DNA of 20,000 bases from an uncultured virus (IMG/VR IMGVR_UViG_3300011438_000001). Taxonomy: Duplodnaviria; Heunggongvirae; Uroviricota; Caudoviricetes. Each line of letters starts with the position of its first letter. The stretch's first letter is position 1. Positions 392 through 19,894 of the stretch are shown here, piece by piece. Under the pieces are notes generated by a model. The model did not search any database. It saw only the letters and a list, made by a program, of their open reading frames with translations, and was not told the DNA's origin. Made by a program: the position numbers and the translations under genes. The DNA is taken from the IMG/VR virus record IMGVR_UViG_3300011438_000001. The stretch is one strand, 5' to 3'.

Positions 392-958
392 ATGCCAGTT
401 CTTGACCTAGCCCGCGAGATTCGGCAGCTGGCGGTTGATCCGGGGGCTGGCGAGCCCCGCGGCAATGTGGATGGCCTGGGCAATGGCAACGGCCGGCAGG
501 GTCCACGTCCCCCTGCCGGCAACGGAGCATCTAATGGCCCCCCTGCCGGGCAGCGCCACGCCAACGATCCCAACTCGGTTCGCATCCTGCTCTTTCAAGC
601 CCTGCGCAAGATGCAAGCCTGGGCGAATGCTCCAGAGGCTGTTGTCGCAGCAACAACCGCAACTGCCGCCCCAACTCCATCCACCGTCCAAGTCGTCCAG
701 GACGTCTTCCTGGTTGCCTCAACCCTCACCACGGTCGTGCCGGCCGCAGCCGCAACCGAAGGCGCATCCCTTGATGTCTTTGTACGCCAGCCCCTGACCG
801 GCACCCCAGGATCGGTGGCGTTTAATAGTGGATTTAGATTGACGCCATCCAACATTGCGCAGACCTTGGGAAGCTGGAGCGTCTTCAGCTTTGTCGGCAA
901 GGCAGATGGGAAGTGGTGGCTGAGGACCAACATCCGGACGGGAGTTTTTTATTCATGA
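392..958 (+). CDS. Putative small tail-fibre/virion accessory protein (188 aa)
   Basis: ATG lies 6 nt after the previous stop, with GGGGGAG upstream. A G/N/P-rich N-terminal linker leads to a C-terminal domain (LDVFVRQPLTGTPGSVAFNSGF...WSVFSFVGKADGKWW) resembling the 'IxQDxTGxRTxxW...DxxxF...GxxW' module of phage fibre proteins. The stop overlaps the next start (ATGA). Confidence 0.6.
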   Translation: MPVLDLAREIRQLAVDPGAGEPRGNVDGLGNGNGRQGPRPPAGNGASNGPPAGQRHANDPNSVRILLFQALRKMQAWANAPEAVVAATTATAAPTPSTVQVVQDVFLVASTLTTVVPAAAATEGASLDVFVRQPLTGTPGSVAFNSGFRLTPSNIAQTLGSWSVFSFVGKADGKWWLRTNIRTGVFYS

Positions 959-3900
959 TCTTACGACTTCTGCTTGCATTGTCCATAGTGTTTGTCATTC
1001 AAGCGCAAACGGACTTGATCGCCCCCGTCACCGTGCATGCCCCAGCTGGTGATGCATCTTCCATCATCAACTCTCGTTATGAAATCAAGGATAAGGACGG
1101 CGGGGCTCTCAAATGGGTCATGGAAGGAACATTAGGCGACCCAACGACCGGCACCACTCGTCTTTATTTTCAAGATTCCACCCCAGCCAAAATCTTACAG
1201 TTTGAACGTAAAGACACCGGCGTTTTAACGAACCGTGCCGTGCTCGACATGCACTGGATCCCGGCGATCACCGCCACCTACGACCTTGGCAAATTAACCG
1301 AAGTCTGGAACCACGCCTACATCGCCGAGACCCACACGACCAGCCTGCGCCCGATCATCGGATCGGATATTGAGGTTAGGGGGAATCTAATTTCTCCAGT
1401 CCTACTGAACCTTGGCAATGCAACCACCGGCCGGTGGGACACTCTTTACGTTACGAATATCGACTGCACGGGGATTTGCGGCAGCAGCTACTGGTCTAGG
1501 GATGCTTCTGGATTTATTTTCCCAACGACAACCGATGACGACGTGCGGGTCCAGAAATTGCAGCTGACCGACGACACGCTGCTCCCGTCGGTGTTCTTCA
1601 TGGACATCCGCGCAGAAATAACCACGATCTCCCCTGGCGTGCGGTTCATGGAATTTAGGGACAACGCCGGCGGGATAATGCTCAGGCTCCAGCGCCAGAA
1701 CGCCAGTGCCGTTGCCAACTACGCCATCTTCGACATGGACCTTCGTCCCCGCGTGGACGACAGTTACGACATTGGATCGGCAATCGGCGCCGTTACGACG
1801 CAACGCTGGCGGAATGCGCATCTCTCGGGCGATCTCTTCGCGGATGAACTAGGCTCAAGCGCAGATAGGATCTCCAAACTCTGGGTGACCGACATCGATT
1901 GCTCCGGTGTCTGCCCCACGGGTTATTGGGGCCGCGATTCCGGCGCCGGTTTTATCTATCCATTAACCACTACCGACGATGTGCGGATGGAGAAGTTGGT
2001 CCTCATGGACGACAATCTCCTGCCATCAACTTTGCTCTTTGATATTCGAGCTTCTATCTCTGTCATCTCCCCGGGCGAGCGTTACTTAGCCTTTAGAGAC
2101 AACGCTGGAGCTGAGATGTTGCGGTTGCAACGACAGATGGCAGGGGCGGTCGCCAACTACGCTTTGTTTGATATGGACCTTCGTCCCCTTGTCGATGATT
2201 CCTACGATATTGGATCGGCAATTGGTGCTGCAACAACCCAGCGCTGGCGCAACGCACATTTTTCTGGCGACATCTTCGCCAATGAACTAGGCTCAAGTGC
2301 CGACCGCATTTCAAAACTGTGGGTCACCGACATCGACTGCACAGGGGCGTGCGGCTTCTGGTCCCGCAATTCCGGCAGCGGCTATATCTACCCGACCACT
2401 ACGACCGATGACGTTCGAATGGAAAAGCTCGTCCTGATGGATGACAATGCTTTGCCATCTGTCCTGACCTTCGACATTCGCGCTTCAATCTCCACGATTT
2501 CTCCAGGCGTGCGTTATATGGCCTTCAGGGACAACGCTGGTGCGGAGATGCTTCGCCTCCAGCGGCAAGAGGCGGGGGCAACCGCCAACTACGCCATCTT
2601 CTCCATGGATCTCCGTCCCGACACCGATGATGCTCAGGACATCAGCTCAGTAGTTGGAGCCGCCTCCCTCAAGCGGTGGCGCAACGCGCAGTTCTCTGGG
2701 GCCATATCAATCTCCGACGCTACCCCAACCGTGCGCACCTCCATCACAACCGCCTCGACAACCTGGAGTGATAACGGCGGCACTTTGCAAGCCTCGGTCA
2801 ACACCACGAGTGGGGCAATCACCGGAAAGGGCGGATTCTACGCCGGCCCCAGCGTGGTGCAAGTGGTTGATGCAAATGCGCGATGGGTCGGCGCTGATAT
2901 CTTCTTCGCTGCTGACAATACTTACAACATCGGCGATGGCGGCACCGGCTCGCGTCCAGCGAACATCGGCGCTGGTTCCACGATCAATCTCTACAATGGC
3001 GCCACCGCAACGGTTCGCACGGCAATCACGACGGCATCAACGGTTTGGAATGATGCTTCTGGAGCTTTGAAGGCTTCAGTGAACACTGCTTCGGGCGCCC
3101 TATTTGGTGAAGGTGGAATCTACGTTGGATCTGGTGTGACCAACGTCATCAACTCATCTGCCCAATGGGTGGGGCATCTCTCATCTAATGTCACCAGCAC
3201 CGCAGATCTTGGGGCTGGCGGCATCTACTGGCGAGATGCTTACTTTGCTGGGACCGTCTTCGCCGCTAACCTTGGAAACTCTGGCGCTCGCATCACCAAG
3301 CTCTGGGTTACGGATATTGACTGCTCCGGGGTTTGTCCAGGTGGCGGGCTCCCCGTAGTTGACACCACCAGCATTGTCTCGGGATCGGCTGATGGGACTA
3401 AGCTCATGCGCTTTGAAGTAGATGGGGTCTCGGCATCGACCACTCGCGTGATGACCATTCCCAACACCGACCAGATCCTGGCCGGCCGGGATGTAGACAA
3501 TTCATTCTCGGCTGCACAATCCTTTGGCAGCACGATCGGCGTCACAGGCGCGGCAACCCTGAGCAGCACGCTTGGCGTCACAGGCGCCACCACCCTCAGC
3601 AGCACGTTGAGCGTAGGCGGCAATCTCACTTTCTCGGCTGACAACACCTACAACATCGGCACGACTTCCAGCGGGCGCCCCGCCAACATCGGCGCCGTCT
3701 CGACTATCGTCCTCTACCACACCACCAGCTCTTCAACTGCTCGTATCTACATGGACACGACCGGCCAGACCTGGAATAACAGTTCTGGAACTCCAAAGGC
3801 TTCCATCACCAACGCCACCGGGGCAATCGTCGGCGAAGGCGGTTATTCCACGGCTGCTGGAGTTTTTGTCGACTCCAACAGCCGATGGGCCACCAACCTT

Positions 3901-4233
3901 GACTTCTCAAGCGACAACGTCTACAACATTGGTGGCACTTCATCCAACCGCCCCGCCAACGTCAACGTCGTCTCGTCCATCAACCTCTACCACACGACCA
4001 GTTCATCAACCCTGCGCACTGCGATCACCACGGCATCAACCACCTGGAATAATTCATCCGGCACAATCATGGCTTCTGTGAACACATCGTCTGGCTCGAT
4101 CTCGGGGTCTGGGTTCTTCGTTGGGAGCATAGGCAGCGGGTTTGCCACCGGCCTGACGGGCACCTTTACTTCCTCCACGGCTTCCTGCACGGTTACGTTC
4201 ACCGGCGGGATCGCAGTTTCGAAAACATGCTGA
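955..4233 (+). CDS. Large modular tail-fibre/adhesin-like repeat protein (1092 aa) with N-terminal signal-peptide-like sequence
   Basis: Start reassigned from 913 to ATG 955 (ATGA overlap with upstream stop, GGAG at 941-944). It has recurrent D-x-x-Y-[DN]-[IL]-G...R-W fibre-type motifs, three ~145-aa repeats, four ~90-aa repeats and 12-aa shaft repeats. The C-terminal TGTFT...CTVTFTGGIAV resembles phage fibre/spike ends. Confidence 0.75.
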   Translation: MILRLLLALSIVFVIQAQTDLIAPVTVHAPAGDASSIINSRYEIKDKDGGALKWVMEGTLGDPTTGTTRLYFQDSTPAKILQFERKDTGVLTNRAVLDMHWIPAITATYDLGKLTEVWNHAYIAETHTTSLRPIIGSDIEVRGNLISPVLLNLGNATTGRWDTLYVTNIDCTGICGSSYWSRDASGFIFPTTTDDDVRVQKLQLTDDTLLPSVFFMDIRAEITTISPGVRFMEFRDNAGGIMLRLQRQNASAVANYAIFDMDLRPRVDDSYDIGSAIGAVTTQRWRNAHLSGDLFADELGSSADRISKLWVTDIDCSGVCPTGYWGRDSGAGFIYPLTTTDDVRMEKLVLMDDNLLPSTLLFDIRASISVISPGERYLAFRDNAGAEMLRLQRQMAGAVANYALFDMDLRPLVDDSYDIGSAIGAATTQRWRNAHFSGDIFANELGSSADRISKLWVTDIDCTGACGFWSRNSGSGYIYPTTTTDDVRMEKLVLMDDNALPSVLTFDIRASISTISPGVRYMAFRDNAGAEMLRLQRQEAGATANYAIFSMDLRPDTDDAQDISSVVGAASLKRWRNAQFSGAISISDATPTVRTSITTASTTWSDNGGTLQASVNTTSGAITGKGGFYAGPSVVQVVDANARWVGADIFFAADNTYNIGDGGTGSRPANIGAGSTINLYNGATATVRTAITTASTVWNDASGALKASVNTASGALFGEGGIYVGSGVTNVINSSAQWVGHLSSNVTSTADLGAGGIYWRDAYFAGTVFAANLGNSGARITKLWVTDIDCSGVCPGGGLPVVDTTSIVSGSADGTKLMRFEVDGVSASTTRVMTIPNTDQILAGRDVDNSFSAAQSFGSTIGVTGAATLSSTLGVTGATTLSSTLSVGGNLTFSADNTYNIGTTSSGRPANIGAVSTIVLYHTTSSSTARIYMDTTGQTWNNSSGTPKASITNATGAIVGEGGYSTAAGVFVDSNSRWATNLDFSSDNVYNIGGTSSNRPANVNVVSSINLYHTTSSSTLRTAITTASTTWNNSSGTIMASVNTSSGSISGSGFFVGSIGSGFATGLTGTFTSSTASCTVTFTGGIAVSKTC
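1456..2700 (+). repeat. Three tandem ~435-438 bp (145-146 aa) intragenic repeats
   Basis: Units begin at [ND]IDC codons at 1456, 1891 and 2329. Each contains WxRxxxxGFIYPTTTxDDVR, FRDNAGxxMLRLQRQ, ANYAxFxMDLRP and RWRNA. Confidence 0.95.
2704..4120 (+). repeat. Second repeat family (~90 aa; one partial and three full copies) plus 12-aa shaft repeats
   Basis: DNxYNIG...RPAN...IxLY...WN..SG...AS units have their DN codons at 2914, 3640 and 3913 (last two 273 bp apart), with a partial copy from ~2704. GVTGA[AT]TLSSTL occurs twice (36-bp unit) at ~3538-3609. Confidence 0.9.
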
Positions 4234-4259
4234 TTGGATTTCTTGTGCAAAATCAGCGC

Positions 4260-4288
4260 TTGCATGATCTGACAAGATCTGGTAAGCT
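4260..4288 (+). promoter_or_regulatory. Sigma70-type promoter, probably producing a leaderless mRNA
   Basis: TTGCAT (4260-4265), a 17-bp spacer, then TAAGCT (4283-4288) with an extended -10 TG. ATG 4296 follows after 7 nt, with no Shine-Dalgarno sequence. Confidence 0.6.
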
Positions 4289-4295
4289 CCATTCC

Positions 4296-4757
4296 ATGAG
4301 GAACCTAATCTCAACCGTGCTGCTCTCAGCAGCATTGCTCTCGCCTTTGCTCTCGCCCTTGTCCTTGCCCCAAGCCCAAGCCCAGGGGTTCATCACGTCA
4401 TCCACATCCGGCATTTTCAAGCTGACCATCCAGCAATATGCTTTGCCCCAAAGCATCATGCAGTTCATCCCACCCCAGCATCTTCCAACACCTGCCGACA
4501 AACGCGAGGGAGTCATCGTCTATGTTTTTGCCGCGGATGAATCGACGCCGGCCGACATGGTTGAGATCACGGTCACTTATTGGCAGGCGGGCAAGCAGTG
4601 GACGAGGATCCAGCAAGGGAGCTTTAATAAAGGCGGATGCTGGCCGGCACCTTGCAGGTCTGGAGGATCGGTCTTCTTTATTGGAGCGGTCGATCTCAAA
4701 GACGTGAAGGTCGAGGTGAAGCCGGTGGTCTGGGAGAGCAGGGAGGTTGGGGAATGA
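4296..4757 (+). CDS. Secreted hypothetical protein (153 aa)
   Basis: Start reassigned to ATG 4296. MRNLISTVLLSAALLSPLLSPLSLPQAQA|Q looks like a Sec signal peptide. The mature part is beta-rich with a CWPAPC cysteine pair. The stop overlaps the next start (ATGA). Confidence 0.7.
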   Translation: MRNLISTVLLSAALLSPLLSPLSLPQAQAQGFITSSTSGIFKLTIQQYALPQSIMQFIPPQHLPTPADKREGVIVYVFAADESTPADMVEITVTYWQAGKQWTRIQQGSFNKGGCWPAPCRSGGSVFFIGAVDLKDVKVEVKPVVWESREVGE

Positions 4758-5362
4758 TTGAAGTGAAGAACCCCCTGAGGTTTGAAATCCTCTTGGGCAT
4801 GAGCATTGGCTTCTTCTCTGGCTTTGCTGGCGGCAACTTTATTGGCCGTTCACAAGGCTATGCTTCTGCCCTCAAGGAGGTCAAGCAAGAAGTCGACAAG
4901 CGGTTGGATGAGCTGGCCCCTGGATCAATCCCCATCCCCAAGAACTTCAAGGGGGAGGTCACCGTCGGCGGCAAAGCCAAGCCCAAATACAAATGGGATC
5001 TCAAATCCGTTCGATGCGAAGATGACGGGAAGGCAGTCAAGCAGGTCAACACTTTTGACCTGGGCTCCACTTCCCAGCCCTCCTGGACCTTGCACCGGGA
5101 CAATAGCAATGCCCCAGCAACATACTCCCTTGACTTGGACTTCAACACTTTTGACCCGGGTTCCGCGCCCCTGTCCGTCAACGAGAACAACTTCGTTGAC
5201 ATCAGGGGGCTCGAATCCGTGTTGGATAACGAACCCAGCGTCAAAAATATCCAGATCAACAAACCAAAGGGAAAAGAATGCAAACAACTCATGATTGCCT
5301 TTCGAGGCTTGATTATTCACGGCGTGGCGAGTGGAGAAACCGGATGCATATTCTCGTTTTAG
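4754..5362 (+). CDS. Membrane-anchored hypothetical protein (202 aa)
   Basis: Start ATG 4754 with GGAGG at 4742-4746 and an ATGA overlap. One N-terminal hydrophobic/Gly-rich helix (ILLGMSIGFFSGFAGGNFIG) precedes a short coiled coil and a soluble domain with three Cys. Confidence 0.7.
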   Translation: MIEVKNPLRFEILLGMSIGFFSGFAGGNFIGRSQGYASALKEVKQEVDKRLDELAPGSIPIPKNFKGEVTVGGKAKPKYKWDLKSVRCEDDGKAVKQVNTFDLGSTSQPSWTLHRDNSNAPATYSLDLDFNTFDPGSAPLSVNENNFVDIRGLESVLDNEPSVKNIQINKPKGKECKQLMIAFRGLIIHGVASGETGCIFSF

Positions 5363-5838
5363 TTCTTAGCCTGCTTGTCATACTTGCCCCGATGGCATCC
5401 TTGCTTGTGCCAACGGCAATGGCCGAGACTCCGACTCCTGCTCCTCCGCCAGCCACCAAGGTCGTCACGACGCCAGTCTCCACCTCCATCCCCCTCACTT
5501 CGGACCAACGTCTCGCCTATCTCGAAAAAGCTCTGGCGGCATCCAACGCCAAGCTGGAGCTTTTCTCTTTAGAAATCCGCCTCTTCCGCCTGCGGGACCA
5601 ATCGCAACAAGCAATTGAACGCTCCAGGCAGGCTGAGCAATTAGTTCAAGAGAAGCAAGACGCCAGCTTCCGCGAAGCTTATAAACCTGCCGAAGCCACC
5701 TTCCGCCAATCTGACGCAGAGTTGCAAGCCGCCACCACTGCAGCCAAGACGGCCCTCAAAGTGCCAGACGGTTGGGTGGTGTCTGCGGATGGCAAGGAGT
5801 TTAAACCGCCACCCCCACCCGCACCGCCCAAGAATTGA
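5344..5838 (+). CDS. Signal-peptide-bearing coiled-coil protein (164 aa)
   Basis: Start ATG 5344 with GGAG upstream. MHILVLVLSLLVILAPMASLLVPTAMA|E is followed by a Pro/Thr linker, a long coiled coil and a WVVSADGKEF + poly-Pro tail. Confidence 0.7.
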   Translation: MHILVLVLSLLVILAPMASLLVPTAMAETPTPAPPPATKVVTTPVSTSIPLTSDQRLAYLEKALAASNAKLELFSLEIRLFRLRDQSQQAIERSRQAEQLVQEKQDASFREAYKPAEATFRQSDAELQAATTAAKTALKVPDGWVVSADGKEFKPPPPPAPPKN

Positions 5839-7467: not shown

Positions 7468-7854
7468 ATGAGAGACTTCATTGCTGACTTCACGCTCCTT
7501 ATCCAGGCGACTGCCGCCAGTGGCCAGGGGCTTATCATGGCCCTTTCCAACTGGCTGCACTGGACGGCCGAAGCTCAAGCCGTTGCCCATGTGGGGTTGG
7601 GCATCATGTCGATGTGGCAGGCGATGATCGCCAAGTCGCATATGCCCAAGGAGCAGCAGGTGCAGGCTGCTGAGTTGAGTGAGCTGCTGGCCGCATATAG
7701 AAAGAATCAAGGCCTGTCGCCGGCGCCGACCGTCACAGTTACGGTGGACGAAACGCCACCAGCCTCGCCATCTACCTCACTATCAACTTCGCCAACTTCC
7801 CCAACTTCCCCAACTTCACCACCTTCACCCCCCAAATCTCCCCCGCAAATATAA
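7468..7854 (+). CDS. Possible holin-like membrane protein with Ser/Pro/Thr-rich tail (128 aa)
   Basis: GAGG lies upstream. Two moderately hydrophobic segments occupy the N-terminal 55 aa. The C-terminal (SPT)n tract is encoded by a 9-bp CCAACTTCC-type repeat at ~7783-7820. Confidence 0.5.
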   Translation: MRDFIADFTLLIQATAASGQGLIMALSNWLHWTAEAQAVAHVGLGIMSMWQAMIAKSHMPKEQQVQAAELSELLAAYRKNQGLSPAPTVTVTVDETPPASPSTSLSTSPTSPTSPTSPPSPPKSPPQI

Positions 7855-8261: not shown

Positions 8262-8933
8262 ATGAGAATTGCTTGGTATGTCTCCCTCGTAGCCCAGGCG
8301 ATTCTAGCCCTGACCCTTTGGGAGCCCAATCGCCGCAACTGGTTCGTTCGCTATCTCGTCATTGCCCTCGCCGTCTCCATGATCCGGATTCAATTCTCCG
8401 GAGGCGCCCGCTATTTCTCCGACCACGACTATTGGTATGCGTGGACGGCTACTGAGCCCCTGCTCCTTGGCCTGCAATTCCTAGCCGTCGAGCAAGCCAC
8501 CCGCGGGACCACCCGCGATTTGTTCCACATCGCCATCATCATGGCGATCTCCTTCACGCTCTGGGCGATCCTTCTAACCGGCGACAACTGGTCGATTCTG
8601 CGCCGCGCCGCCCTCCTGCTCAAGCAAGCCGGCACCTTTGGCTGCTTCTCCTGCCTCTTCATCCCAGCCGTTATGCCGGCCGTCCTGCGCAACCTCTCGA
8701 TCGCCCGACTTACTATCCCGGCCCGCACCGACCTTTGGATGCTTTCTTATTTCACTCTCAACGGCCTCTCGCTAGTCGCCGCCCAGGTCACCATCACCCA
8801 GCCAGCCATTCAAGCCGTTTCCACAGTTCATCTCGTCCTAATCACCTGCCTGTTCATGACCTGGACCGTCTCCACGGTTTGGCAGCAGTTTCGTGTAGGG
8901 GTTCCTGCCTATGTCCGAAGTCCTGATCGATAG
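8262..8933 (+). CDS. Polytopic (~6-7 TM) membrane protein of unknown function (223 aa)
   Basis: Serial hydrophobic segments with no soluble domain. The motifs WFxxYL and YWYAWTATEPL resemble an uncharacterised 7TM family I associate with Acidobacteriota (recalled, not verified). Confidence 0.75.
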   Translation: MRIAWYVSLVAQAILALTLWEPNRRNWFVRYLVIALAVSMIRIQFSGGARYFSDHDYWYAWTATEPLLLGLQFLAVEQATRGTTRDLFHIAIIMAISFTLWAILLTGDNWSILRRAALLLKQAGTFGCFSCLFIPAVMPAVLRNLSIARLTIPARTDLWMLSYFTLNGLSLVAAQVTITQPAIQAVSTVHLVLITCLFMTWTVSTVWQQFRVGVPAYVRSPDR

Positions 8934-9198
8934 AGAAACACCAAATATGCCACCAGCATCGCTTCATGAAATAAGCAGATCTCTTGCGCTGTTGCACCAG
9001 CGGATCGAGCATAGCGAGGACCGGCAGGCCGGCAAGTGGGAAGTCTACAACGATCGCCAGGATCGTATTGACAAGCATTTAGAATCCACCGACTGTGATG
9101 TTGGCGAGTTGCGCAAGTTCATGATCCAGCTGAAGACGATTGGAGTTATTATCGGGATTGTCTGGCCGCTGGTGGTTAAGTATCTGCTGCCGAAATAA
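8911..9198 (+). CDS. Holin-like protein: coiled coil plus single C-terminal TM helix (XhlA-type architecture; 95 aa)
   Basis: A charged heptad region is followed by TIGVIIGIVWPLVVKYLLPK. An alternative start exists at ATG 8947. Confidence 0.6.
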   Translation: MSEVLIDRETPNMPPASLHEISRSLALLHQRIEHSEDRQAGKWEVYNDRQDRIDKHLESTDCDVGELRKFMIQLKTIGVIIGIVWPLVVKYLLPK

Positions 9199-9237
9199 TT
9201 TTGCAAAGAAACGAAAGAGGGAAAGGACAAAGCAACC

Positions 9238-9438
9238 ATGAAAGCACACTTCAAGAAATATCGAGACGGCTTCACCTTGCGGGTCTCTGGCCTGAGCAAG
9301 ACCCAGATACTCAAGGCAATCAGCGCCATCAAAGGTGATCTGGTCGCCGCTCAGGGGTTGGGGCAAGAGCGAGTGACCATGGCGGCTTTCGATGATCCAC
9401 TTCCTTCATGTGCGCCGGATGAGCCCCGCTGCTCTTGA
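9238..9438 (+). CDS. Small protein (66 aa), candidate peptide precursor ending in FDDPLPSCAPDEPRCS
   Basis: A purine-rich leader with GAGG/AAAGGA precedes ATG 9238. The N-terminal part is basic/amphipathic and the C-terminal 16-mer is acidic and Pro-rich with two Cys. Confidence 0.65.
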   Translation: MKAHFKKYRDGFTLRVSGLSKTQILKAISAIKGDLVAAQGLGQERVTMAAFDDPLPSCAPDEPRCS

Positions 9439-9478
9439 ATCCTGGCACCAAATCTGGCTCGTAACTTCTAGCCACGCA

Positions 9479-9503
9479 TGGTAAACTTGCCCTGATAAAG
9501 GAG
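9479..9503 (+). promoter_or_regulatory. Candidate extended -10 promoter and RBS for the ejection-protein genes
   Basis: TG-G-TAAACT at 9479-9487 with a poor -35 match; AAGGAG at 9498-9503. Confidence 0.4.
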
Positions 9504-9514
9504 ATCTTCATCTC

Positions 9515-11380
9515 ATGGGTGGATATGTTCAGCCGATGGGTGGTGGTGGACGGGGCGGCGGGCGGTTCAACCCGGGGCTTCCCCAACGGCGCATGTCGCT
9601 GATGAATGAAGGCGGCAGCGGTGGCGGGGGCAGCTACGCTGATCCTTATGGCGAAGGGCTCTCAGCCCCTCCCGGCTATGGCCTCGACGCCGGCGGGATG
9701 GCCCCAATGTCTGGTGGTGGCTCCGGTGGTCCACCTCCTGACGCCGTTGGCGGCGGGTTCAACGGCGGCGCCTACCGCCCAGCTCAAGCTCCCGGCCCCA
9801 TCCGCGGCTCCACTCCCTACCGCCCGGCCAACGGTCTCTCCTCTATGGAGAACTGGTCCAATGAACAAGACCGTGCAGCCGGCGGTGCGGATGTTCTAGA
9901 CCAAGGGATCAGGGATTTTTATAATCAAGCCCAAGAACAAGCCGCCCGTTACGGTGGGCAGGCTGATGAATACTTCGCCCAGCTGATGCAAAACGCGGGC
10001 TATTCTCCACAAGAAGCCCAGCAGATCATGCGCGAGTCCGAGACCAACGGGCTCAAGATGGGCGATGAGGAATTTAATTCAAGGTTCCAAACCGAAGGTG
10101 AGCGTGGAGAAATCCGCGGCAATCCTTATGGGGCAAGGGATTCATTTGCCCGGGATAGTGGGACAACAAGAGACACCTTCTACGACAACAACAACAAGGT
10201 CTCGCAAACCGTCAACGCGGCTGCTGATGATGTTCTTGGCTCCACCAATGCCTATAGAAAGTCTCTGGGCGACACCGCGAATCGCTACAACGGCGCCGTT
10301 GACCAAGCGAACTTTGATGTGGATCCTGCATATTCCGGCAGAGTCTCAAGTCTCGATTCTGAAGCCGGCCGGGATCTTTCTCTCTCCGATCGCTACATGG
10401 AGAAGCGGGGCTGGTCTGAAGGGGATCTTGATAAAGTTTCTGGACGAGCTGCCCGGCAAGTCGGTGGTGCTTACGCATCCGAAGTCGATGCGATCAACCG
10501 CCAAGCTGCTGCCAGTGGCAACACCAACCCGATGGCTCTTGCCGCCGCTCGCCTGCGTGCTGCGCGATCCGGTGCAGTAGACCAAGGGGACGCGATCGCC
10601 AACGCAGAAGCCGCCGGCCTCAACACGGCCAAGCTTGCAGAGCAGGATATCGAAGGGACCAGACTTGGTGCGGCAGGGCAGCGGATCCAAACCCGCGCTG
10701 GTCTTGCCTCCGACGTCGAAGATCGCCGGTTCCGCGGGGAAGAGGCCGGGATGGGCGCAAGATTCCATGCGGCTGATGCCACCACGGCGGCGGAACGTGC
10801 TGCCAACGACGCTGGATTTGCCGGCGCCCGCTACACCGGGGATCTCCGGACTGGTGCTGCAGAGCGCACTCGAGAAGCAGCCACCGGCCTTGATGAACGC
10901 ACCGCTAAGACCCAGGCTGATTACGAACGCGCCGGTGAGCAAGCAGCATCCGATCGCGGAACCCACCTTGCCGACACCCGCGCCACCATCGCCGCCAACA
11001 CCGGCCAGGAGCGATTCTCCCGGGGCGCCTACGCCAACGATGCATCGTCTGGCCGCGCAAGAACTGTTGCAGATGCCCGTCGTGCTGACGAGACGGCCGG
11101 CCGTGGTTACTACGCCGGGCAGGCTGGCGACTGGGCCAACCGCGGGCAGACTGCACTGGGTCAACGCACATCCGCTTATAGTGCAGGAACCGCAGCGACC
11201 CAAGGTGCAGCTCGAGGTTATGGAAATGCTTATGAGGCCAAGCAGCAACGGCCTGGAACGTTTGGCAAAATTCTAGGTGCTGCAACCGGGATTCTTGGCG
11301 GGCTTAATCCCACTGGAACTCTAGGCAGAGTAGCCGGTGCTGCGGCCGGTGGTGCTCGCGGCATGGGCAGAGGTTACTAA
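9515..11380 (+). CDS. Putative internal virion/DNA-ejection (pilot-like) protein (621 aa)
   Basis: Gly/Ala/Arg/Gln-rich and apparently helical, with a Gly/Pro/Met-rich N-terminus and C-terminal glycine-zipper amphipathic segments (GTFGKILGAATGILGG...GRVAGAAAGGARG). It is the first of three large genes in the arrangement typical of P22 gp7/gp20/gp16 or T7 gp14-16 (analogy only). Confidence 0.6.
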   Translation: MGGYVQPMGGGGRGGGRFNPGLPQRRMSLMNEGGSGGGGSYADPYGEGLSAPPGYGLDAGGMAPMSGGGSGGPPPDAVGGGFNGGAYRPAQAPGPIRGSTPYRPANGLSSMENWSNEQDRAAGGADVLDQGIRDFYNQAQEQAARYGGQADEYFAQLMQNAGYSPQEAQQIMRESETNGLKMGDEEFNSRFQTEGERGEIRGNPYGARDSFARDSGTTRDTFYDNNNKVSQTVNAAADDVLGSTNAYRKSLGDTANRYNGAVDQANFDVDPAYSGRVSSLDSEAGRDLSLSDRYMEKRGWSEGDLDKVSGRAARQVGGAYASEVDAINRQAAASGNTNPMALAAARLRAARSGAVDQGDAIANAEAAGLNTAKLAEQDIEGTRLGAAGQRIQTRAGLASDVEDRRFRGEEAGMGARFHAADATTAAERAANDAGFAGARYTGDLRTGAAERTREAATGLDERTAKTQADYERAGEQAASDRGTHLADTRATIAANTGQERFSRGAYANDASSGRARTVADARRADETAGRGYYAGQAGDWANRGQTALGQRTSAYSAGTAATQGAARGYGNAYEAKQQRPGTFGKILGAATGILGGLNPTGTLGRVAGAAAGGARGMGRGY

Positions 11381-11384
11381 CGAA

Positions 11385-13265
11385 ATGGGAATCTTCGACG
11401 TTCTGCGCGGCAATAGTAGGACATCCTTCCGGACGCCTCCTTTCATCAATCCTGGAATGCGACCTCGCCCAACCGACATGGATGCCGATGACATGGGCGG
11501 CAGGACTGATTCCGACATGGATGACGCCGGCATGGGCAGCAGGTATGGCGGGACTCCAGCTTATCAACAGCAGCGGGCTGAAGAGGATCTGTCGTCTATG
11601 ACGAATCAGGATCATGCATATCCCGCGGCGCAAACCCATCAACCTACTCCACCTCCTGCCTATAATCCACCGCCACCGGATGCTGATGGCGGGGCTGGTG
11701 CATCAGCAGGTGGAGGCTCAGGCGCCCTGGGCTCCCTCCGCACCGCTGCCCGCCCCCGCCGGTCCTACGACCCCAACGACCTCCCGCGCCTGCCCTCCCC
11801 AGCCCAGGACGACTATGATCAATTCCTCCTGCGCCAAGCGCAATCCCGCCCAGGGGATGACGATTCCCCCGTGGCTAAGTCGCCATCCATCTGGCGGCGG
11901 ATCGGCGCCATGGCCCTCGGCGGGGCAGCGGGATATGCGAGCAACACTCCAAACGCCGTCTCGCCATATGCACTAGACCGGGCAGAGGAAGGAATCCTTT
12001 ATGGTGGCAGTGGCGAGCCCGAAAGATTGCAGCAGATCGCCCTCACCAAAGCTTCTCTTGCTGAACGCGCCACCCGCGAGAATGCCTCGCTCGACGACAG
12101 AATGAAATTGCAGCAGCATCAAAACCAAATGGAGCACTGGGATGCTCTCGCCGAGAACGCCCGCGAGATGACGGCCGCTTCCGCTGATGCCCGTGCCGCG
12201 GCTACTGAGGCTCGCAATATCGCCACCAAAGAACGTGAGCAGCGCGATCGCCAGACTGCGATGAATTCTCAAAACGCTCTGCAATATCAAATCGGCAAGG
12301 GCGATATGATTCCTGCGGGGCAGATTCCAACCCACCAAATGGATCTGGGGATGCCCCCTGGCGGATGGCAAGGCCCGGTGGACGACAACGGGCAATCGAG
12401 TGGTCCATTATCCGCCCCTCCATCTGTGCCTTCTCTTCCTCCAGGAATCTCCAGCTCCATTCCGATCAACGTGCAGGAGCCGGGCTGGAATAAATTCACC
12501 ATGCAACAGTTGAATCCGGATGGTTCTTATAAGCCCCTCGAGATGGCGGCACCGTCTGCAGAACGACGTGCGAAGAATGCCGGCGACATGGCTGAGGCGA
12601 AGAACGAAGTGGATGTTCCGGCGAATCAACGGGCGATGTTCGGCGGCGCAGCCAAGGTCGACAAGCGAATCTACGACGCCACCTTGAAACGTGATTCATC
12701 GGCGGCACGGGATGCAATCAATAAAGAAATCCAGCAAGGCCACGACCAAGCCAGCCGGGCTAGGTCTGGTGTCATGCTGCAAGCAGCGCAGCTCCGCACC
12801 ACCATCGGCGGGGCCAAAGCCATGAACCCTGCCCAAATCCAATCCTCCCTGAACGCCATTGCCCGCATGAAGAACAGCTCGGTCGGCGCGGAAGCAATTG
12901 CCCGCAGGACTGCCGCCACCGCGCATGCCCGTCTTGCCTCCACCCAATACCAAATGTCGCCTGAGGAATATACTACGACCAAAACGGCAATTGATAACGC
13001 CGAAAAGTCTGCGGTGGAAGAAGCGAATAAGATGCAGCAATACTTCGACACCATGGAGCAGGAGGTTCGGGCGAAGGCTGTGGCTGCGGCCAATCCCAAT
13101 CCAGCATCGCCTGCCCCCGGGGCTGCGCCTGGAGCTGAAGATCCAAACGCCATTCGCAACCGGCTGAAGCTTCCACCTGCGGGGAACCAGCCCAACCCGG
13201 GGCTCAACCCGCCGCCCGGTGGTGGCGCAGGATTGCAAGGCAACCGCAGCATCTTTGGCCGTTAG
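11385..13265 (+). CDS. Putative internal virion/DNA-ejection protein (626 aa)
   Basis: Start reassigned to ATG 11385 (GAGG at 11370-11373). Low-complexity Pro/Gly regions alternate with Ala/Gln/Glu coiled coils, with one amphipathic motif PSIWRRIGAMALGGAAGY. Confidence 0.6.
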   Translation: MGIFDVLRGNSRTSFRTPPFINPGMRPRPTDMDADDMGGRTDSDMDDAGMGSRYGGTPAYQQQRAEEDLSSMTNQDHAYPAAQTHQPTPPPAYNPPPPDADGGAGASAGGGSGALGSLRTAARPRRSYDPNDLPRLPSPAQDDYDQFLLRQAQSRPGDDDSPVAKSPSIWRRIGAMALGGAAGYASNTPNAVSPYALDRAEEGILYGGSGEPERLQQIALTKASLAERATRENASLDDRMKLQQHQNQMEHWDALAENAREMTAASADARAAATEARNIATKEREQRDRQTAMNSQNALQYQIGKGDMIPAGQIPTHQMDLGMPPGGWQGPVDDNGQSSGPLSAPPSVPSLPPGISSSIPINVQEPGWNKFTMQQLNPDGSYKPLEMAAPSAERRAKNAGDMAEAKNEVDVPANQRAMFGGAAKVDKRIYDATLKRDSSAARDAINKEIQQGHDQASRARSGVMLQAAQLRTTIGGAKAMNPAQIQSSLNAIARMKNSSVGAEAIARRTAATAHARLASTQYQMSPEEYTTTKTAIDNAEKSAVEEANKMQQYFDTMEQEVRAKAVAAANPNPASPAPGAAPGAEDPNAIRNRLKLPPAGNQPNPGLNPPPGGGAGLQGNRSIFGR

Positions 13266-13291
13266 AATCTGGCTCGATTTTTTGAAAAACA

Positions 13292-16200
13292 ATGTCAGCC
13301 TTCCCTTTTCCCCTTGGCCCACCGCGATCCACCTCCATGAGCGCCCGCCGCTCGATCCGCGACCTGGGCCGGGAGACCCGCAGCAAATTCCCTGGCCAGT
13401 TCGACGACATCCCCGACGATGCGGCATTGGGAAGGGCGACTAAGGAGACTTATCCGGATCAGCATGCCGATGTTGTGGATGATGATCCATTTCCGGATTT
13501 TAGTGGACCTTCCCAACCCAACGCCCCGCCAGCCTTTCGTCCTCCACCTACTCAAGGCAACGTTCTATCCTTTGGTCCACCTTCCCCGCAGCAGGTGCAA
13601 TATGCTCGTGCAACAACCCCCAAGCGTGAGCCTTTTCGATCTACTGGCGCTGACTCTGCTTTGCCTCTTGGTCCACCGCCCCGCTCGCCAGGGCAGGTAG
13701 ACCCGGTTCGCAGTCGTCCTGGCGATGATCCTTATGCCGCGGCGCGGCTCAACATCGGCGCTGATGAAGCATTAGGCGCACGGGAAGCTCCAGGTCTCGC
13801 CGGCGCCTACGAAAAGCACCAGATCCGCGAGGTCGGCGCCGGTGCTTATCAAACCCTGACCGGGACCGACCCAGACGCTCCATGGAATGCGCCTTCCAGC
13901 CCGGTCGATTCAAGATTTGGTGGACTGAACCGGGCTGCGGTTGGGCTGGGGATGGCCTTTGCCCCAGTTGCCCTTCCACTTGCCGCTGGAGCTGCACCTG
14001 CCGCCACTGCTGCGGGCGCGATTGCCGGCATGCCAATCCAGGCTGGTGTCGAGCATGGCCTGCGATATGCCGGCGCTGGGCCTGGGGTCTCTGCGGCCGC
14101 TGGGACACTGGCTGGCGGATGGGCTGGGGCAAGAGCCGGCAGATGGGCAGCTGGCCGATTTGGTGGAGGCGTAGAACCACCACCGCCTGTTGACGACGGC
14201 AGTGGCGTCCATGTGGATCCTACCCGGCCGCGCCCGACCGGCCCGCACCATGAGCCTACGCCTGTAAGTCAGGCAAGAGCCGACGATATCGAAGGTTCGT
14301 ACTACATGATGGCGCAGCCGATGGGCGACCGGCCACCATATTCATTCCAGGAAATTCCGTCGCTGCCAACGCAATCGCGAGCAACCCGGCCACCAGGGTT
14401 TCAACGACTGCCGCCACGCCAAGCTCCTGGGGCTGGCCCTGGTCCCGCGGCGGTCCCATCTGCCGTCCCCAACGAGACCGCTGGCGTTGCAGGCGCCACT
14501 GCTCCAACTGGCATCCCCCTAGAACTCGCAGCCCCTCCTCCTTATCGTCCAGGGCTGCAACCGCGCCAATCCGCCTCGACCATCATTCCACCGTCTCGTC
14601 AACTTGGTCCAGCTCCAATCCCAACCCTCCCGATCCAAGGCGCCGGCCCGGTTCAAGGATCCCTGCTCCGCGCCCCCGTGACCTACGATCCCCTGGGCAC
14701 CTCCCAGATCCCAGGCTCGCCCCCTGGCGCCCGCCCCCCGATCTTCCCCTACGATCCTTATGATCCAATCCAAGGTCCAACGCCTCGTCCACCTACTGTG
14801 CTGCCGCGCAATGCGCAAGGGCAACCGATCTGGTCCGAGAATCCAACGACCACCCAGCAGATCAATCTGCCGGAACCTATGGGTCCAGCCGCACAAGGCG
14901 GCGGCGGGCTTCCCAGGCCTGCACCGCTAGCTCCACCTGGGGCGACGGCGTTTTTAGAATCGCCTAATCCTAACCCCCTCTCGCCATCCGGTCTCCCGGG
15001 CTGGGATCTCCGACGCAACCGCATGATGGCCGGCGATGTTGCGGCAGATCCACGATCTCAATTGTCGCAACCCGGGATTGCCAAGCCTCCATCGCCTGCT
15101 CCACTGGCCCCGCCGGCGATCGGTGCTTCTCCACTCCCCCCGCCACCGGCCGTTCCCAAGGCTCCACTGGCGCCAACGACCCCTCCTCCCCGTCCGGTCT
15201 CCGCCCTGGATCTCGAGAGGCTGGGCATGGAACCTGCGCCTCCAACTCAAGCTCCACCATCTGGAGTCCTGCAACTAGACCCAGCTCGACGTGCCAAGAC
15301 CCTGGCAGAGCTGATCGCCTTCCGCGACGGCAAGAAGGGCTATGTCGGCGGCGGTCCCGGCGGGCAGAAGGCTCCGACGAAATTCGAGGATCTCCCATCG
15401 GAATCCAAACTGGCAATCCATCGCCAGATTGATCAGCTCAAAGCTGCCGATCCTTCCTACGTGGCGCCCAAGCCTTCAGTTCCTGCATTTGCCGCGGCCA
15501 AAGCGCGGGGCCTCCGCGATCCAACTCCTTCTCCTTCTGCTGCGCAGATTGCTAATCCCGTAACGGCTCCTGCCACAACAATGACCAACGGGATGAAGAC
15601 CGGCATCCTCACCCGGCTAGGTGATCTTGCCGCCAGTGTCAAGAACGTTGCCGTTAGAAACTTCTCCAACCTGGAGAGGTATGGACGGGAGCCTTCGGCT
15701 AAGGCAACAGAGGCTATGGGCGATAACCCCGCCGGCGCCAAGACGGCTTATGCGATCGCGCAAGGGATCGGTGCTGCACGCACGGCCGCTAAAGTCCGGA
15801 TGGCCACCTGGATTACTGACGCAAATAAAGCCGCCGGCCATGATGCAAATGCTGCCGTCAATGCATCTCCTGTTCAACCTGCACTGGACGCAATGACCTA
15901 TTCCAGGATCGTCGGCAAGGGCAATCAATATGAGCGGCTCGCCAACGTGATCGAGCAATCCTCCGACCCCGATCTTCGCACGGCAAATGAAACTTGGCTC
16001 TCCGACATCCTGGGCGCCGTTGATTCGGTCGCCTACGATTCGCCTTCCGGCACCTACGGATCCGGCATGCGCGGCAAGGTTGCAGAAATGATGGCGGAAG
16101 GGAAGCTTGATGATGCCCGCGCTTACGTCTCTAACGCATTTCGTGGACTCGCGGCAACCGTTAGAGAAAGGCAGCTGCCAAAGTTCCACGACGCCATGGT

Positions 16201-18598: not shown

Positions 18599-19216
18599 TT
18601 ATTTCCTCAGCAAATCCGCCCAGGCCTTCCCAAACTTCTCGCCATACTCAACGGTCCAGCTCATCTCGGCGCCGCCCTCCCCGCCGTTCCAGGCCCGGGC
18701 GATCCGCGCCACCGGAACCGCACCAGCCATCCGCTTGGAGAACCGATTCCACAACCGGTCGAGTTCTAAACAGACCCACTTCTTTGCTTCAAGCTCTTCC
18801 CACAATCTGCAAGGATGGTCTTTAAACCCACGATCGGCCGCGGTGTGGAACAAAATCTGCCATGGGGAATAGCTTCCTGCAGTAGCAATAGCATTCCCCA
18901 TGGTGCAGCCAGCCATCGGCCCAGCGGGATCGAATTCCTGATCGGCGATCTGGGGCAAGGAGAATTTATTCCAGCGGGTCGAGACGATCTCATTGAAGCT
19001 GGCGCCGGTCCCGGTTAGGACTCGCCCCTGCACCGTCACGCTGAAACCTTTGGGCATGTAGGCGGGTTCAAACCTGGGCAGGTTGTTCTCGCCGCGCCTC
19101 GACTCCACCAACGCGATCGCCTTTAGAAAGAGGTTCAGCAGGGGCGCTGACTCAACCGCCGATGGCAGATGGGAAAACAGAGCAACAGTGGGGTCAGCGG
19201 GGATCGGCATTGGCAT
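18599..19216 (-). CDS. Lytic transglycosylase (SLT/lysozyme-like fold), probable endolysin (205 aa)
   Basis: Motif I AIALVES carries the catalytic Glu and is followed by RFEPAY. Motif II variant SYSPWQI...TA...GF and motif III ARAWNGG with a downstream Y are present. AAGGAG/AAGG lies upstream. Confidence 0.8.
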   Translation of the reverse strand: MPMPIPADPTVALFSHLPSAVESAPLLNLFLKAIALVESRRGENNLPRFEPAYMPKGFSVTVQGRVLTGTGASFNEIVSTRWNKFSLPQIADQEFDPAGPMAGCTMGNAIATAGSYSPWQILFHTAADRGFKDHPCRLWEELEAKKWVCLELDRLWNRFSKRMAGAVPVARIARAWNGGEGGAEMSWTVEYGEKFGKAWADLLRK

Positions 19217-19466
19217 CAGCCTTCTTCTCCTTTGTGCTTGAATCCTTTATGTGCGAACAGATCGGGCAGCACTTCCCACAGAATATCTCAACCGTGATCT
19301 GCCTGCCATGCCTCCCCTGCACCGGCTTGCTCACATAATGCGCGGGGTTGTTGGGATCCCCCGCCGGGATCCGCCGGCTAAACGCATCAGGATGAACCAC
19401 AGAGGCGTCTCCAGTGCAGAACACGCCTAGCGGATGCGGCATGTAGGTCGTGCAGGTTGCGATCAT
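19194..19466 (-). CDS. Small Cys-rich putative zinc-binding protein (90 aa)
   Basis: N-terminal C...C and C-terminal CGKCCPIC. The start overlaps the upstream stop (ATGA at 19463-19466). Confidence 0.55.
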   Translation of the reverse strand: MIATCTTYMPHPLGVFCTGDASVVHPDAFSRRIPAGDPNNPAHYVSKPVQGRHGRQITVEIFCGKCCPICSHIKDSSTKEKKADANADPR

Positions 19467-19894
19467 TTGGCGGTCTCCAAGAATCTAACCAGCTTGTGTT
19501 GACCATGTGCATACTGCACCTCGCGAAAGGTGCTCTCGCCGATATACCCACCAACGTTGAGCACCAGGACTTCGTCGGCCATATCAATCTTCTGGCAGTG
19601 GAGGATGTCGAGCTTTTCCTTTTCGGCTTCTGTTGCTCCCACCCCTTCGCCATGGACATTCGCCGAATGTGGATAAAACCCGACCGACAAAACGATCTTC
19701 CCGGCCATTGTCTCGCGGTAGTTGGCTTCCTGGAAGGCATCGTAAAATCGAGTGCTGCCACAAAGGCAAACGATCTTGGGTTTGGTGGCGTATCTAACCT
19801 GCGAGGGAAGATGACAGCCTTCTATGTCCCCGCACGCGGCACATGGTGCATTGGGATGCATTGAATGTTTCCCCTGCCATTTCATGGGCATCAT
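19463..19894 (-). CDS. Nucleoside 2-deoxyribosyltransferase-like (flavodoxin-fold) phage protein (143 aa)
   Basis: Contains KIVCLCGSTRF...LH.QKIDMADEVLVLNVGGYIGESTFREVQYA...K.VRFLE, the signature of a widespread phage NDT-like family including the conserved Glu. It has an extra N-terminal CAAC...CH segment. Confidence 0.75.
   Translation of the reverse strand: MMPMKWQGKHSMHPNAPCAACGDIEGCHLPSQVRYATKPKIVCLCGSTRFYDAFQEANYRETMAGKIVLSVGFYPHSANVHGEGVGATEAEKEKLDILHCQKIDMADEVLVLNVGGYIGESTFREVQYAHGQHKLVRFLETAK

Follow-up and report, generated by a model that had tools for sequence, protein, structure and literature searches.

We analysed a 20,000-nucleotide stretch of DNA (the window) from an uncultured virus of the Caudoviricetes (IMG/VR record IMGVR_UViG_3300011438_000001), and in it the gene for a tail-fibre-like protein (P0001; Table 1) that opens with what has the appearance of a Sec-type signal peptide, here called the leader. 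Textbook assembly of tailed phages is wholly cytoplasmic. The part in question is of a known kind, a tail fibre; the biogenesis route to which its leader points is an undescribed one. Given the canonical build of the leader, the drift of its sequence among relatives, a cut site in the style of the host, its portability and its coupling to paired cysteines, we regard a genuine leader, and hence export of the fibre, as very probable. The fibre is also rather likely to be a component of the virion, in view of the position of its gene, of a socket domain on a leaderless tail protein, and of an analogue in the phage phi18:3.

The fibre gene begins with a leader of canonical build

The ATG of the fibre gene (955) overlaps the TGA (956-958) of the preceding open reading frame (ORF; 392-958) in an ATGA. 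An earlier note on this DNA had chosen this start on account of the overlap and a ribosome-binding site; its coordinates are right, a GGGAG is present at 940-944, and a public gene call gives an identical 1092-residue fibre with the same start, on contigs of up to 76 kb. The sole longer start, a GTG at 913, would lengthen the protein by 14 residues of acidic character (VAEDQHPDGSFLF), which all relatives lack, and the next methionine of the fibre is residue 56. One may suspect an artefact, either a wrong start codon or a chance hydrophobic N-terminus without a role, since the start is a prediction, the GTG offers an alternative and the next methionine lies as far in as residue 56; against this stand the independent gene call, the presence of the feature in 66 of 153 relatives, a relative called as leaderless (P0004) that extends upstream to a leader (P0008), and the same ATGA overlap in the related locus L110. 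We consider an artefact highly improbable.

The n-region of the leader (MILR) carries a charge of +1 from a single arginine, the h-region (LLLALSIVFVI) comprises 11 residues, and the c-region has alanine at −1 and isoleucine at −3, a residue that is tolerated there, if not the commonest. In all three regions the build is that of a leader for Sec and signal peptidase I, and at about 14 residues the hydrophobic run falls short of what an anchor across the membrane would need. The earlier note had read a basic residue, a hydrophobic core and a cleavage site in these first 17 residues, and we read them in the same way; its remark that neither a lipobox nor an autotransporter barrel is visible also stands, as the leader has no cysteine and a Pfam match is absent. 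Several other readings of the protein were rejected. For a lipoprotein, residues 1-17 lack the cysteine and the lipobox; for Tat export, the twin arginine is absent and the leader is just 17 residues long; and for an autotransporter or trimeric autotransporter, there is no Pfam barrel or YadA-type anchor, the C-terminus being a fibre module that ends in a Cx13C loop also known from phage fibres.

The leader recurs and drifts among relatives

An exhaustive phmmer search returned 736 proteins at an expectation value (E) <= 1e-3, of which 150 listed ones were drawn on for classification. The 153 proteins classified include the query, P0008 and P0157; P0002, P0009, P0004 and P0011 were dropped, two of them being flank proteins and two having mis-called starts. 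For a leader to be called, the highest-scoring 10-residue stretch among the first ~26 residues had to reach at least 2.0 on the Kyte-Doolittle scale, and no acidic residue could precede it. By this rule, 66 of the 153 proteins are leader-bearing, 63 are leaderless and 24 are ambiguous, which answers in the affirmative the question, raised by the earlier note, whether homologues also have signal peptides.

Under the same rule an ending of the type [AGSC]|Q, where the bar marks the predicted cut, is found in 61 of the 66 leader-bearing proteins vs. 9 of the 63 leaderless ones (Fisher 7e-21). Predicted leaders are 13-25 residues long; in the 61 relatives, position −1 is A in 40 cases and G in 19, position −3 is A in 24, L in 21 and V in 7, and Q18 is nearly invariant (at least 90%) in a 28-sequence alignment. 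The leaders themselves diverge while the mature parts stay conserved (relatives 45-59% identical): that of P0010, at 59% identity to the window fibre, reads MRPLLILIPSLLFA, and that of P0003 reads MRIAPILIASIAFA. A word-indexed search gave five relatives, four of which start with a leader; the fifth (P0004) was called without one, and the viral-contig locus L001 extends it upstream to MDNAIVSRLHAYAIVVPVVLALLVTNSLA|AQG (P0008). In leaderless relatives the protein opens as ordinary fibres do, with an N-terminus of the 'MADKxIxDL' type. The leader is portable as well, for it precedes several unrelated mature N-termini, a cellular relative, and the protein whose gene follows that of the fibre in the window.

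No related locus was found in viral or metagenome contigs with P0001 alone; searches with alignments yielded a viral-contig set of 59 related loci, with 33 fibres marked as leader-bearing, 2-4 of these calls being doubtful, and 26 not so marked, and an independent metagenome set of 30 loci, with 18 fibres marked as leader-bearing, 11 unmarked ones, 4 of which are truncated at the 5' end, and one without a start. A tblastn search against 50,697 GenBank phages gave no match for the fibre or for its 1706-residue neighbour, and two weak partial matches only for P0157, the annotated region around one of which was uninformative. An exact 42-base search of viral contigs did not recover the contig of the window.

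Leader-bearing fibres gain cysteines in even numbers

The leader is accompanied by a gain of cysteines and by an even parity of their number, as folding in an oxidising compartment would predict. Counted on representatives of 50%-identity clusters, which are not independent lineages, proteins without any cysteine make up 0 of 66 in the leader-bearing class vs. 15 of 63 in the leaderless class, and the mature part has an even number in 61 of 66 leader-bearing proteins vs. 25 of the 48 leaderless ones that have cysteines (Fisher test of parity, 1.2e-6; binomial tests, 2.6e-13 for the leader-bearing and 0.89 for the leaderless class). The mean frequency per 100 residues is 1.21 vs. 0.47 (Mann-Whitney 1.4e-11), a difference in frequency, though hardly in parity, that the host phylum may confound. 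The placement of the cysteines differs too: a CxxC or CxxxC pair at one homologous place, just 5' of the hinge module (Table 1), occurs in 29 of 48 leader-bearing vs. 2 of 26 leaderless fibres (p = 6.6e-6), and a C-terminal Cx(8-16)C in 28 of 66 vs. 9 of 63. By their positions, the ten cysteines of the window fibre make five short-range pairs.

The predicted cut site follows the style of a candidate host

Among named genomes, a related fibre gene was found in just one, a metagenome-assembled genome (MAG) of the Bryobacteraceae (Acidobacteriota; G001), where it lies at locus L003. In this MAG, 35 of 35 type-I leaders checked (loci L008-L037 and L098-L105), a small sample rich in paralogues, have glutamine at +1: all 30 CarboxypepD_reg proteins fetched carry leaders that end in [AGS]|Q, and the five type-I leaders among eight OmpA-family matches all end in |Q, two lipoprotein-like matches and one of anchor type having been set aside. 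Relatives from other phyla have other leader endings, AFA|G in the case of Omnitrophota and VHA|T in that of Limisphaerales. We infer a cut at A17|Q18 in the window fibre because the conserved [AG]|Q site fits this host style. The glutaminyl cyclase family PF05096 was not found in the incomplete G001 MAG, a search from which M28-type cyclases were left out.

The window fibre has glutamine at +1, and several window genes are preceded by Shine-Dalgarno-like sites. Such sites are rarely used by Bacteroidota, which argues against a host from that phylum, and the nearest host evidence from sequence points to Acidobacteriota, not to Bacteroidota. The rule that signal peptidase exposes a glutamine (the Q-rule; PMC5837995, PMC10653852), to which the G001 leaders checked conform, is described as Bacteroidetes-specific (PMC5837995), and a text search of PMC5837995 found no mention of Acidobacteria.

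The mature fibre is built from virion-fibre modules

Modules N, A and B of the fibre terminate in (W/Y)VT(D/N)IDCxGxC, with cysteines at 171/175, 316/320 and 462/466. The first repeat module directly abuts the leader, and for this reason there is no separate canonical anchor domain that would bind the fibre to the particle by its N-terminus. The hinge (LPVVDTTSIV...RFEVDG, residues about 799-860) lies within the region of the query (residues ~790-870) to which most of the 150 phmmer matches listed align.

That the protein consists of fibre-type modules, as the earlier note had proposed, holds, in part through indirect links. The PHROG matches are weak (tail fibre phrog_1348, 3e-4; phrog_13925, 2.7e-4), and the C-terminal 300 residues match the fibre gene of the phage-like locus in the Bryobacteraceae MAG (E 3.4e-9). 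When the leader-bearing subfamily (A3) is used as a profile, it matches a virion fibre of solved structure, gp28 of the cyanophage P-SCSP1u (8i4m; residues 705-1036; E 4.3e-10). This link is indirect because P0001 and its closer alignment (A2) on their own gave zero matches among the PDB sequences. The match via the subfamily profile nevertheless indicates that the modules are true virion-fibre modules. It covers the module that follows the leader in the A3 relatives and a '...YxLGxSSxRWxxVYTxDLN' repeat; in gp28 the matching module lies in the distal third of the fibre, unlike its place directly after the leader in the A3 relatives.

Neither Peptidase_S74 nor any other Pfam domain was matched in the fibre. 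Two further candidates were tried and rejected. The sequon for O-glycosylation of the Bacteroidota type, D[ST][AILVMT], occurs in it no more often than by chance (5 observed vs. 7.6 +/- 2.6 in 2000 shuffles), and for a protein like pIII of filamentous phages, the same protein is present on a contig of up to 76 kb and its relatives adjoin HK97- or SU10-type capsid and tape-measure genes.

A candidate socket domain upstream and a candidate plug motif at the predicted mature N-terminus

The C-terminal part of P0002, the protein encoded directly upstream of the fibre, holds a domain (the socket; Table 1) that is common to the C-termini of the tail tip proteins encoded, after the tape measure, just upstream of leader-bearing fibres in related loci. 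It is 41% identical over 68 residues to the 537-residue tip protein of locus L070 (BLASTP, E 7e-7; 37.4 bits and E 9e-10 in a pairwise comparison), and BLASTP also finds it in the tip proteins of L057 (E 2.9e-6), L050 (E 6.5e-6), and L039 and L003 (both about E 6e-5). We built a hidden Markov model (HMM) from six C-termini and ran it on all ORFs of 97 sources. It matched 28 ORFs, and in each case a leader-bearing fibre gene starts 0-55 nt from the end of the ORF. In the viral-contig set, 23 of 33 leader-bearing fibres have a socket encoded upstream, compared with 0 of 26 leaderless ones (8.9e-9), or 9 of 19 vs. 0 of 26 after dereplication; in the metagenome set the figures are 3 of 18 vs. 0 of 11. 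The best sub-threshold match of a relaxed model is the 221-residue protein upstream of the L001 fibre (E 0.042).

On the side of the fibre, a short 'plug' motif stands within the first 16 mature residues (TPLTV, TPFTV, TPVTV, TPFKV); the window fibre has APVTV. It is present in seven of nine dereplicated leader-bearing fibres with a socket upstream vs. 0 of 10 without one. At locus L043 the socket sits in a small ORF of ~200 residues. The window and L043 keep the pairing in a different gene architecture, which is the strongest hint we have that socket and plug work as a pair. Docking of the processed fibre on the P0002 domain is, on the strength of these sequence comparisons, about as probable as its absence.

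The co-occurrence of socket and leader-bearing fibre can also be read without any export. The hydrophobic N-terminus would in that case be a docking helix that the C-terminal domain of the upstream protein catches co-translationally in the cytoplasm, its likeness to a leader being coincidental or tolerated, and the fibre would join the tail by ordinary assembly. The stop/start overlaps in the window and in L110 and the tight spacing of the two genes favour co-translational contact, the cytoplasm is the textbook compartment of tail assembly, and export is itself deduced from sequence. However, the leaders vary between close relatives while the socket is conserved, and they also stand before unrelated mature domains, at loci without a socket (10 of 19 after dereplication), on a cellular relative and on the protein encoded downstream of the window fibre. 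In addition, the conserved small residue before Q fits the cleavage style of the host, the gain and even parity of cysteines accompany the leader, and the conserved motif lies after the predicted cut and not in the hydrophobic stretch. We therefore consider a docking helix quite unlikely.

Related fibre genes lie in phage tail modules

In five siphovirus-type loci (L003, L039, L050, L057 and L070) a tape-measure gene (TMP_3) is followed by that of a leaderless tip protein of 537-623 residues and then by the leader-bearing fibre; wherever Pfam recognised head or tail-tube genes, these lie upstream. In L003 and L039 the genes that come after the fibre are for small leader-bearing proteins and an endolysin. 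Locus L110, likewise of siphovirus type, has a tape-measure-like ORF open at its 5' end, a 547-residue tip protein, the fibre, a small leader-bearing protein and a lysozyme. Its fibre is P0010, the closest relative of P0001, with the same ATGA overlap; the L110 phage otherwise differs from that of the window, yet shares the distal part of the fibre and the leader-bearing gene downstream. The podovirus-type locus L001 encodes an SU10-type capsid protein (1e-26), a weak match to an adaptor, proteins of 696 and 221 residues and then the fibre, after which come a small leader-bearing coiled-coil-like protein and proteins of 540, 665 and >1853 residues. The fibre gene occupies a tail-module position in all seven of these loci. 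For the window itself, the statement of the earlier note that the gene lies among virion genes has only indirect support, from the viral nearest Atlas clusters of P0002 and of the 1706-residue neighbour and from the socket homology of P0002.

Three further contexts were observed. In an MAG of Omnitrophota (L005, 693-13812), a fibre-like protein of >1368 residues with the leader AFA|G and the shared hinge module is encoded directly 3' of a gene cluster for ParA-like, PilM-PilN/PilO, secretin, PilC, PilB and pilin proteins; here the modules are put to a cellular, pilus-associated use. At L045 (6353-13731, on the same contig as L119), a leader-bearing fibre of 1884 residues with a pectate-lyase-like domain precedes two further proteins, first one with Laminin_G_3 and an N-terminus that resembles a leader, then one of 272 residues with a weak match to an outer-membrane beta-barrel (PF13505, 26.0 bits at a cut-off of 28.7); the phage may thus export a second set of proteins. 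L061 and L066 each hold two consecutive large leader-bearing genes of fibre or lectin type in one phage (in L066 at 8837-11281 and 11634-15305, of which the second encodes a discoidin-type domain), which suggests that whole sets of host-recognition proteins may be routed alike.

Neighbours of the fibre gene in the window

The features discussed here are collected in Table 1.

Table 1. Features of the fibre gene and its surroundings in the 20,000-nucleotide window.
Feature	Position	Strand	Description
P0002, candidate adaptor with socket domain	392-958	+	188 residues, no leader, 0 Cys
Socket domain of P0002	728-922	+	residues ~113-177, ~65 residues; common to tip-protein C-termini
Shine-Dalgarno-like GGGAG	940-944	+	10 nt 5' of the fibre ATG
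Fibre ORF (P0001)	955-4233	+	1092 residues; precursor begins MILRLLLALSIVFVIQA|QTDLIAPV
Leader	955-1005	+	residues 1-17, MILRLLLALSIVFVIQA; predicted signal-peptidase-I site A17|Q18
Mature N-terminus	1006-1044	+	QTDLIAPVTVHAP; contains APVTV (1021-1035), matching the plug motif
Four modules of ~145 residues	1006-2790	+	N 18-175, A 176-320, B 321-466, C 467-612
Two modules of ~95 residues and fourth cysteine pair	2791-3348	+	'ITTASTxW...NTYNIG' modules; DIDCSGVC (Cys 790/794)
Hinge module	3349-3534	+	LPVVDTTSIVSGSADGTKLMRFEVDG...; part most widely common to other fibres
Two more distal modules and C-terminal loop	3592-4233	+	loop C1078...C1092 (4186-4230), then stop
Small protein with its own leader	4296-4757	+	..SLPQAQA|QGF; translation of ORF 4227-4757 has two Cys
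Leader/anchor protein	5344-5838	+	..PTAMA|ETP; coiled-coil-like by eye, Pro-rich ends, spanin-like build
Cys-free large proteins	9515-11380, 11337-13265, 13292-18412		621, 642 and 1706 residues; two with Gly/Pro-rich low-complexity stretches

Pfam gave 0 matches for 19 window ORFs. None of the neighbours of the fibre gene received a virion call from PHROGs, whose sole other match was a weak one to a membrane protein, at 7468-7854. P0002 is an orphan by sequence (1 of 716 candidates, namely itself); its nearest Atlas clusters are viral (0.93), and the leads they offer are T4_gp9_10_N in 23% of one cluster and, by structure, the C-terminal domain of a tail fibre (TM 0.54).

The product of 4296-4757 found no family match, and its family has only two members in a search of 5.8 billion proteins: itself and the product of the gene directly 3' of the L110 fibre, which is 55% identical (E 1e-43) but for its leader, which is another one (..AFSANA|E). 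The window protein is a candidate for a periplasmic accessory protein, a chaperone or a tip protein of the fibre. Proteins built like that of 5344-5838 follow the fibre in L001 (12184-12573), L003 (10958-11227), L039 (11870-12142) and L110 (5680-5985), and in L003 and L039 a second small leader-bearing protein with cysteines, and then the endolysin, come after the coiled-coil-like one. Judged by their build, these small leader/anchor and coiled-coil-like proteins look like spanin-type lysis genes. Farther downstream, 8262-8933 encodes 223 residues with at least three hydrophobic segments, and 8911-9198, whose gene overlaps the end of the former, encodes 95 residues with a C-terminal hydrophobic segment; neither has a family match, and the two are possibly holin-type or other membrane proteins.

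The three large cysteine-free proteins resemble in order and size the 540-, 665- and >1853-residue proteins of L001, without detectable sequence similarity. The nearest Atlas clusters of the 1706-residue protein are viral (0.95), with LPD38 in 88% of one cluster at 0.93; its leads among polyvalent-protein domains are LPD38, LPD3 and MuF_C. All three are likely internal or ejected virion proteins. On the minus strand, three ORFs at 18599-19894 (205, 90 and 143 residues, with 6 cysteines in each of the shorter two and no family match) are probably where a module of different orientation begins. Scans of the window for promoters and terminators did not rise above shuffles (5 vs. 3.9 expected; 7 vs. 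8.7), and a tRNA scan found none.

Comparison with known systems

The cultured Cellulophaga phage phi18:3 (NC_021794.1, Pachyviridae) encodes three adjacent large proteins, gp085-087, whose leaders end in |Q: MKNKITIIMILMSISFGYS|QV (gp085), MKKTIYILSILLLTISGVSA|QT (gp086) and MKHTFSIVLFFILSIGLNA|QT (gp087). Their record annotates them as structural/tail proteins 'based on experimental MS/MS proteomics analysis' (tandem mass spectrometry). Nine other phi18:3 proteins with an MS/MS annotation were translated and none has a leader; the endolysin gp092 is encoded a few genes 3' of gp085-087. By analogy, phi18:3 provides the only experimental hint of leader-bearing proteins in tailed-phage particles, and a literature search found no paper on the leaders of gp085-087. 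It differs from the window in its Bacteroidota host and in the few cysteines of gp085-087 (0, 1 and 3).

Late and spontaneous attachment of separately made parts is known from the long tail fibres of T4 and from the P22 tailspike, which can be added to tail-less heads in vitro; a finished particle can thus gain its receptor-binding part last, even outside the cell. Unlike in the route considered here, both partners are in these cases made and normally joined in the cytoplasm, without crossing a membrane. Leader-bearing Q-rule proteins without an assigned role are also described for Porphyromonas gingivalis phages, in a study whose authors read them as modifiers of the host surface (PMC10367356). 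As in the window, phage genes there copy the leader style of the host and expose a glutamine; unlike those proteins, P0001 is a fibre encoded at a tail-fibre position, and its host hints point to Acidobacteriota.

The MAT (mosaic adhesive trimer) fibres of Bdellovibrio bacteriovorus have a leader, directly after it a conserved beta-rich N-terminal domain of ~130 residues, and then a phage-like fibre with swappable tips; 13 of 21 MATs have a Peptidase_S74 chaperone domain, and the proteins, products of cellular genes of the predator, are exported and act outside the cytoplasm, on its surface (PMC10769870). They share with the window fibre a leader ahead of a phage-like fibre. The window family is unlike them in that the genes of the close relatives surveyed belong to tail modules of phages, where that of a leaderless tail protein comes before them, and in that P0001 has no S74 match.

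The MATs are a precedent for a second possibility, namely that the fibre is exported without joining the virion and serves as a periplasmic or surface adhesin, as a mask or decoy of the receptor, as an egress or depolymerase factor, or in a MAT-like role. All evidence for a genuine leader fits this equally well, and a trimeric phage-like fibre with a leader on a cell surface has been described (PMC10769870). The L005 gene directly follows a PilM/N/O-secretin-PilC-PilB-pilin cluster, the fibre gene marks the boundary between tail genes and lysis genes, a frequent place for accessory genes, the L045 fibre is followed by the Laminin_G_3 protein with its leader-like N-terminus and the sub-cut-off beta-barrel match, and in the siphovirus-type loci the tip protein itself could bind the receptor. 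If the two products never came into contact, however, it would be hard to see why the socket on the leaderless upstream tail protein is conserved and found only beside leader-bearing fibres, in many cases with a stop codon that overlaps the start of the fibre gene. L039 and L003 have no other fibre-like gene between tape measure and lysis genes, the phi18:3 analogues are annotated in particles by MS/MS, and Pfam matched neither a C-terminal outer-membrane anchor nor Peptidase_S74 in the window fibre. An exported protein that stays off the particle is, in our view, unlikely.

A proposed route to the particle

In the route that we favour, the nascent fibre would be exported via Sec, as the build and recurrence of its leader suggest. 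The leader would be cut at A17|Q18, where the conserved [AG]|Q site and the style of the host place the cleavage, to give the new N-terminus QTDLIAPVTV. The protein would then fold in the oxidising periplasm, where its five short-range cysteine pairs, indicated by parity and position, would close, and the leader-bearing product of 4296-4757 may assist this folding. Upon breach by the holin or lysis, the new N-terminus would dock on the C-terminal domain of P0002, which would sit on the otherwise finished particle; this last step is drawn from comparative genomics. For the chain as a whole, from export through cutting and disulfides to docking at lysis, we see the chances as evenly divided. Put more generally, such phages would build particles in two compartments, with head and tail made in the cytoplasm and the fibre and its small partner sent through Sec, the plug (Q-x(1-4)-[TA]P-x-[TK]-[VI]) entering the socket at holin opening; this generalization is tentative, and we place it a little short of even.

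The earlier note had proposed a Sec leader on the fibre with two possible fates of the exported protein. The recurrence of the leader, the style of the cut site, the cysteines and the leader-bearing gene downstream all speak for the proposal. Of the two fates, late attachment is favoured by socket and motif and by phi18:3, and the adhesin or decoy is kept as a rival; one relative, at L005, lies in a cellular type IV pilus cluster.

A number of points weigh against the route. Every leader call is based on one home-made hydropathy rule, and export, cleavage, disulfides and incorporation into the virion are deductions from sequence. In the statistics of the socket, P0002 was itself part of the HMM, many of the loci are near-duplicates, 10 of the 19 dereplicated leader-bearing loci are without a socket, and the plug motif was defined after the sequences had been looked at; the siphovirus-type loci are moreover kin, so that shared ancestry could give the co-occurrence of socket and plug. 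P0002 is a candidate virion protein only, the window neighbours lack a Pfam match or PHROG virion call, and no window flank resembles L001 by BLASTP. The leader-bearing relative at L005 is cellular, beside a cluster like those of type IV pili or type II secretion systems, and P0001 matched 1 of 401 Acidobacteriota genomes searched (G001). The phi18:3 proteins gp085-087 have no similarity to the window fibre family (E <= 0.01), and their MS/MS annotation is silent on leader removal. Finally, the route leaves fibre and particle only a short time at lysis in which to come together, and our literature search found no paper on a Sec-routed part of a tailed phage.

Implications for phage biology

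Leader-bearing fibres are widespread and not a curiosity of one contig, as they make up 66 of 153 relatives and 33 of 59 viral-contig loci. The contribution of the window is a case in the style of Acidobacteriota, the cysteine contrasts within one family, a co-conserved leader-bearing partner gene, and the pair of socket and plug, which provides a concrete, testable interface. If the proposed route is true, cleavage by signal peptidase would be a licensing step that creates the docking end of the fibre, and infectivity would be gained in the last seconds, with particles infectious only from lysis on. Receptor-binding proteins could then use disulfides and other periplasmic maturation, and secretion and signal peptidase of the host would be dependency factors of the phage. 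Leader-bearing fibre genes, which are at present readily set aside as 'morons' or mis-annotated as surface proteins, would count as host-range determinants when hosts are predicted from metagenomes.

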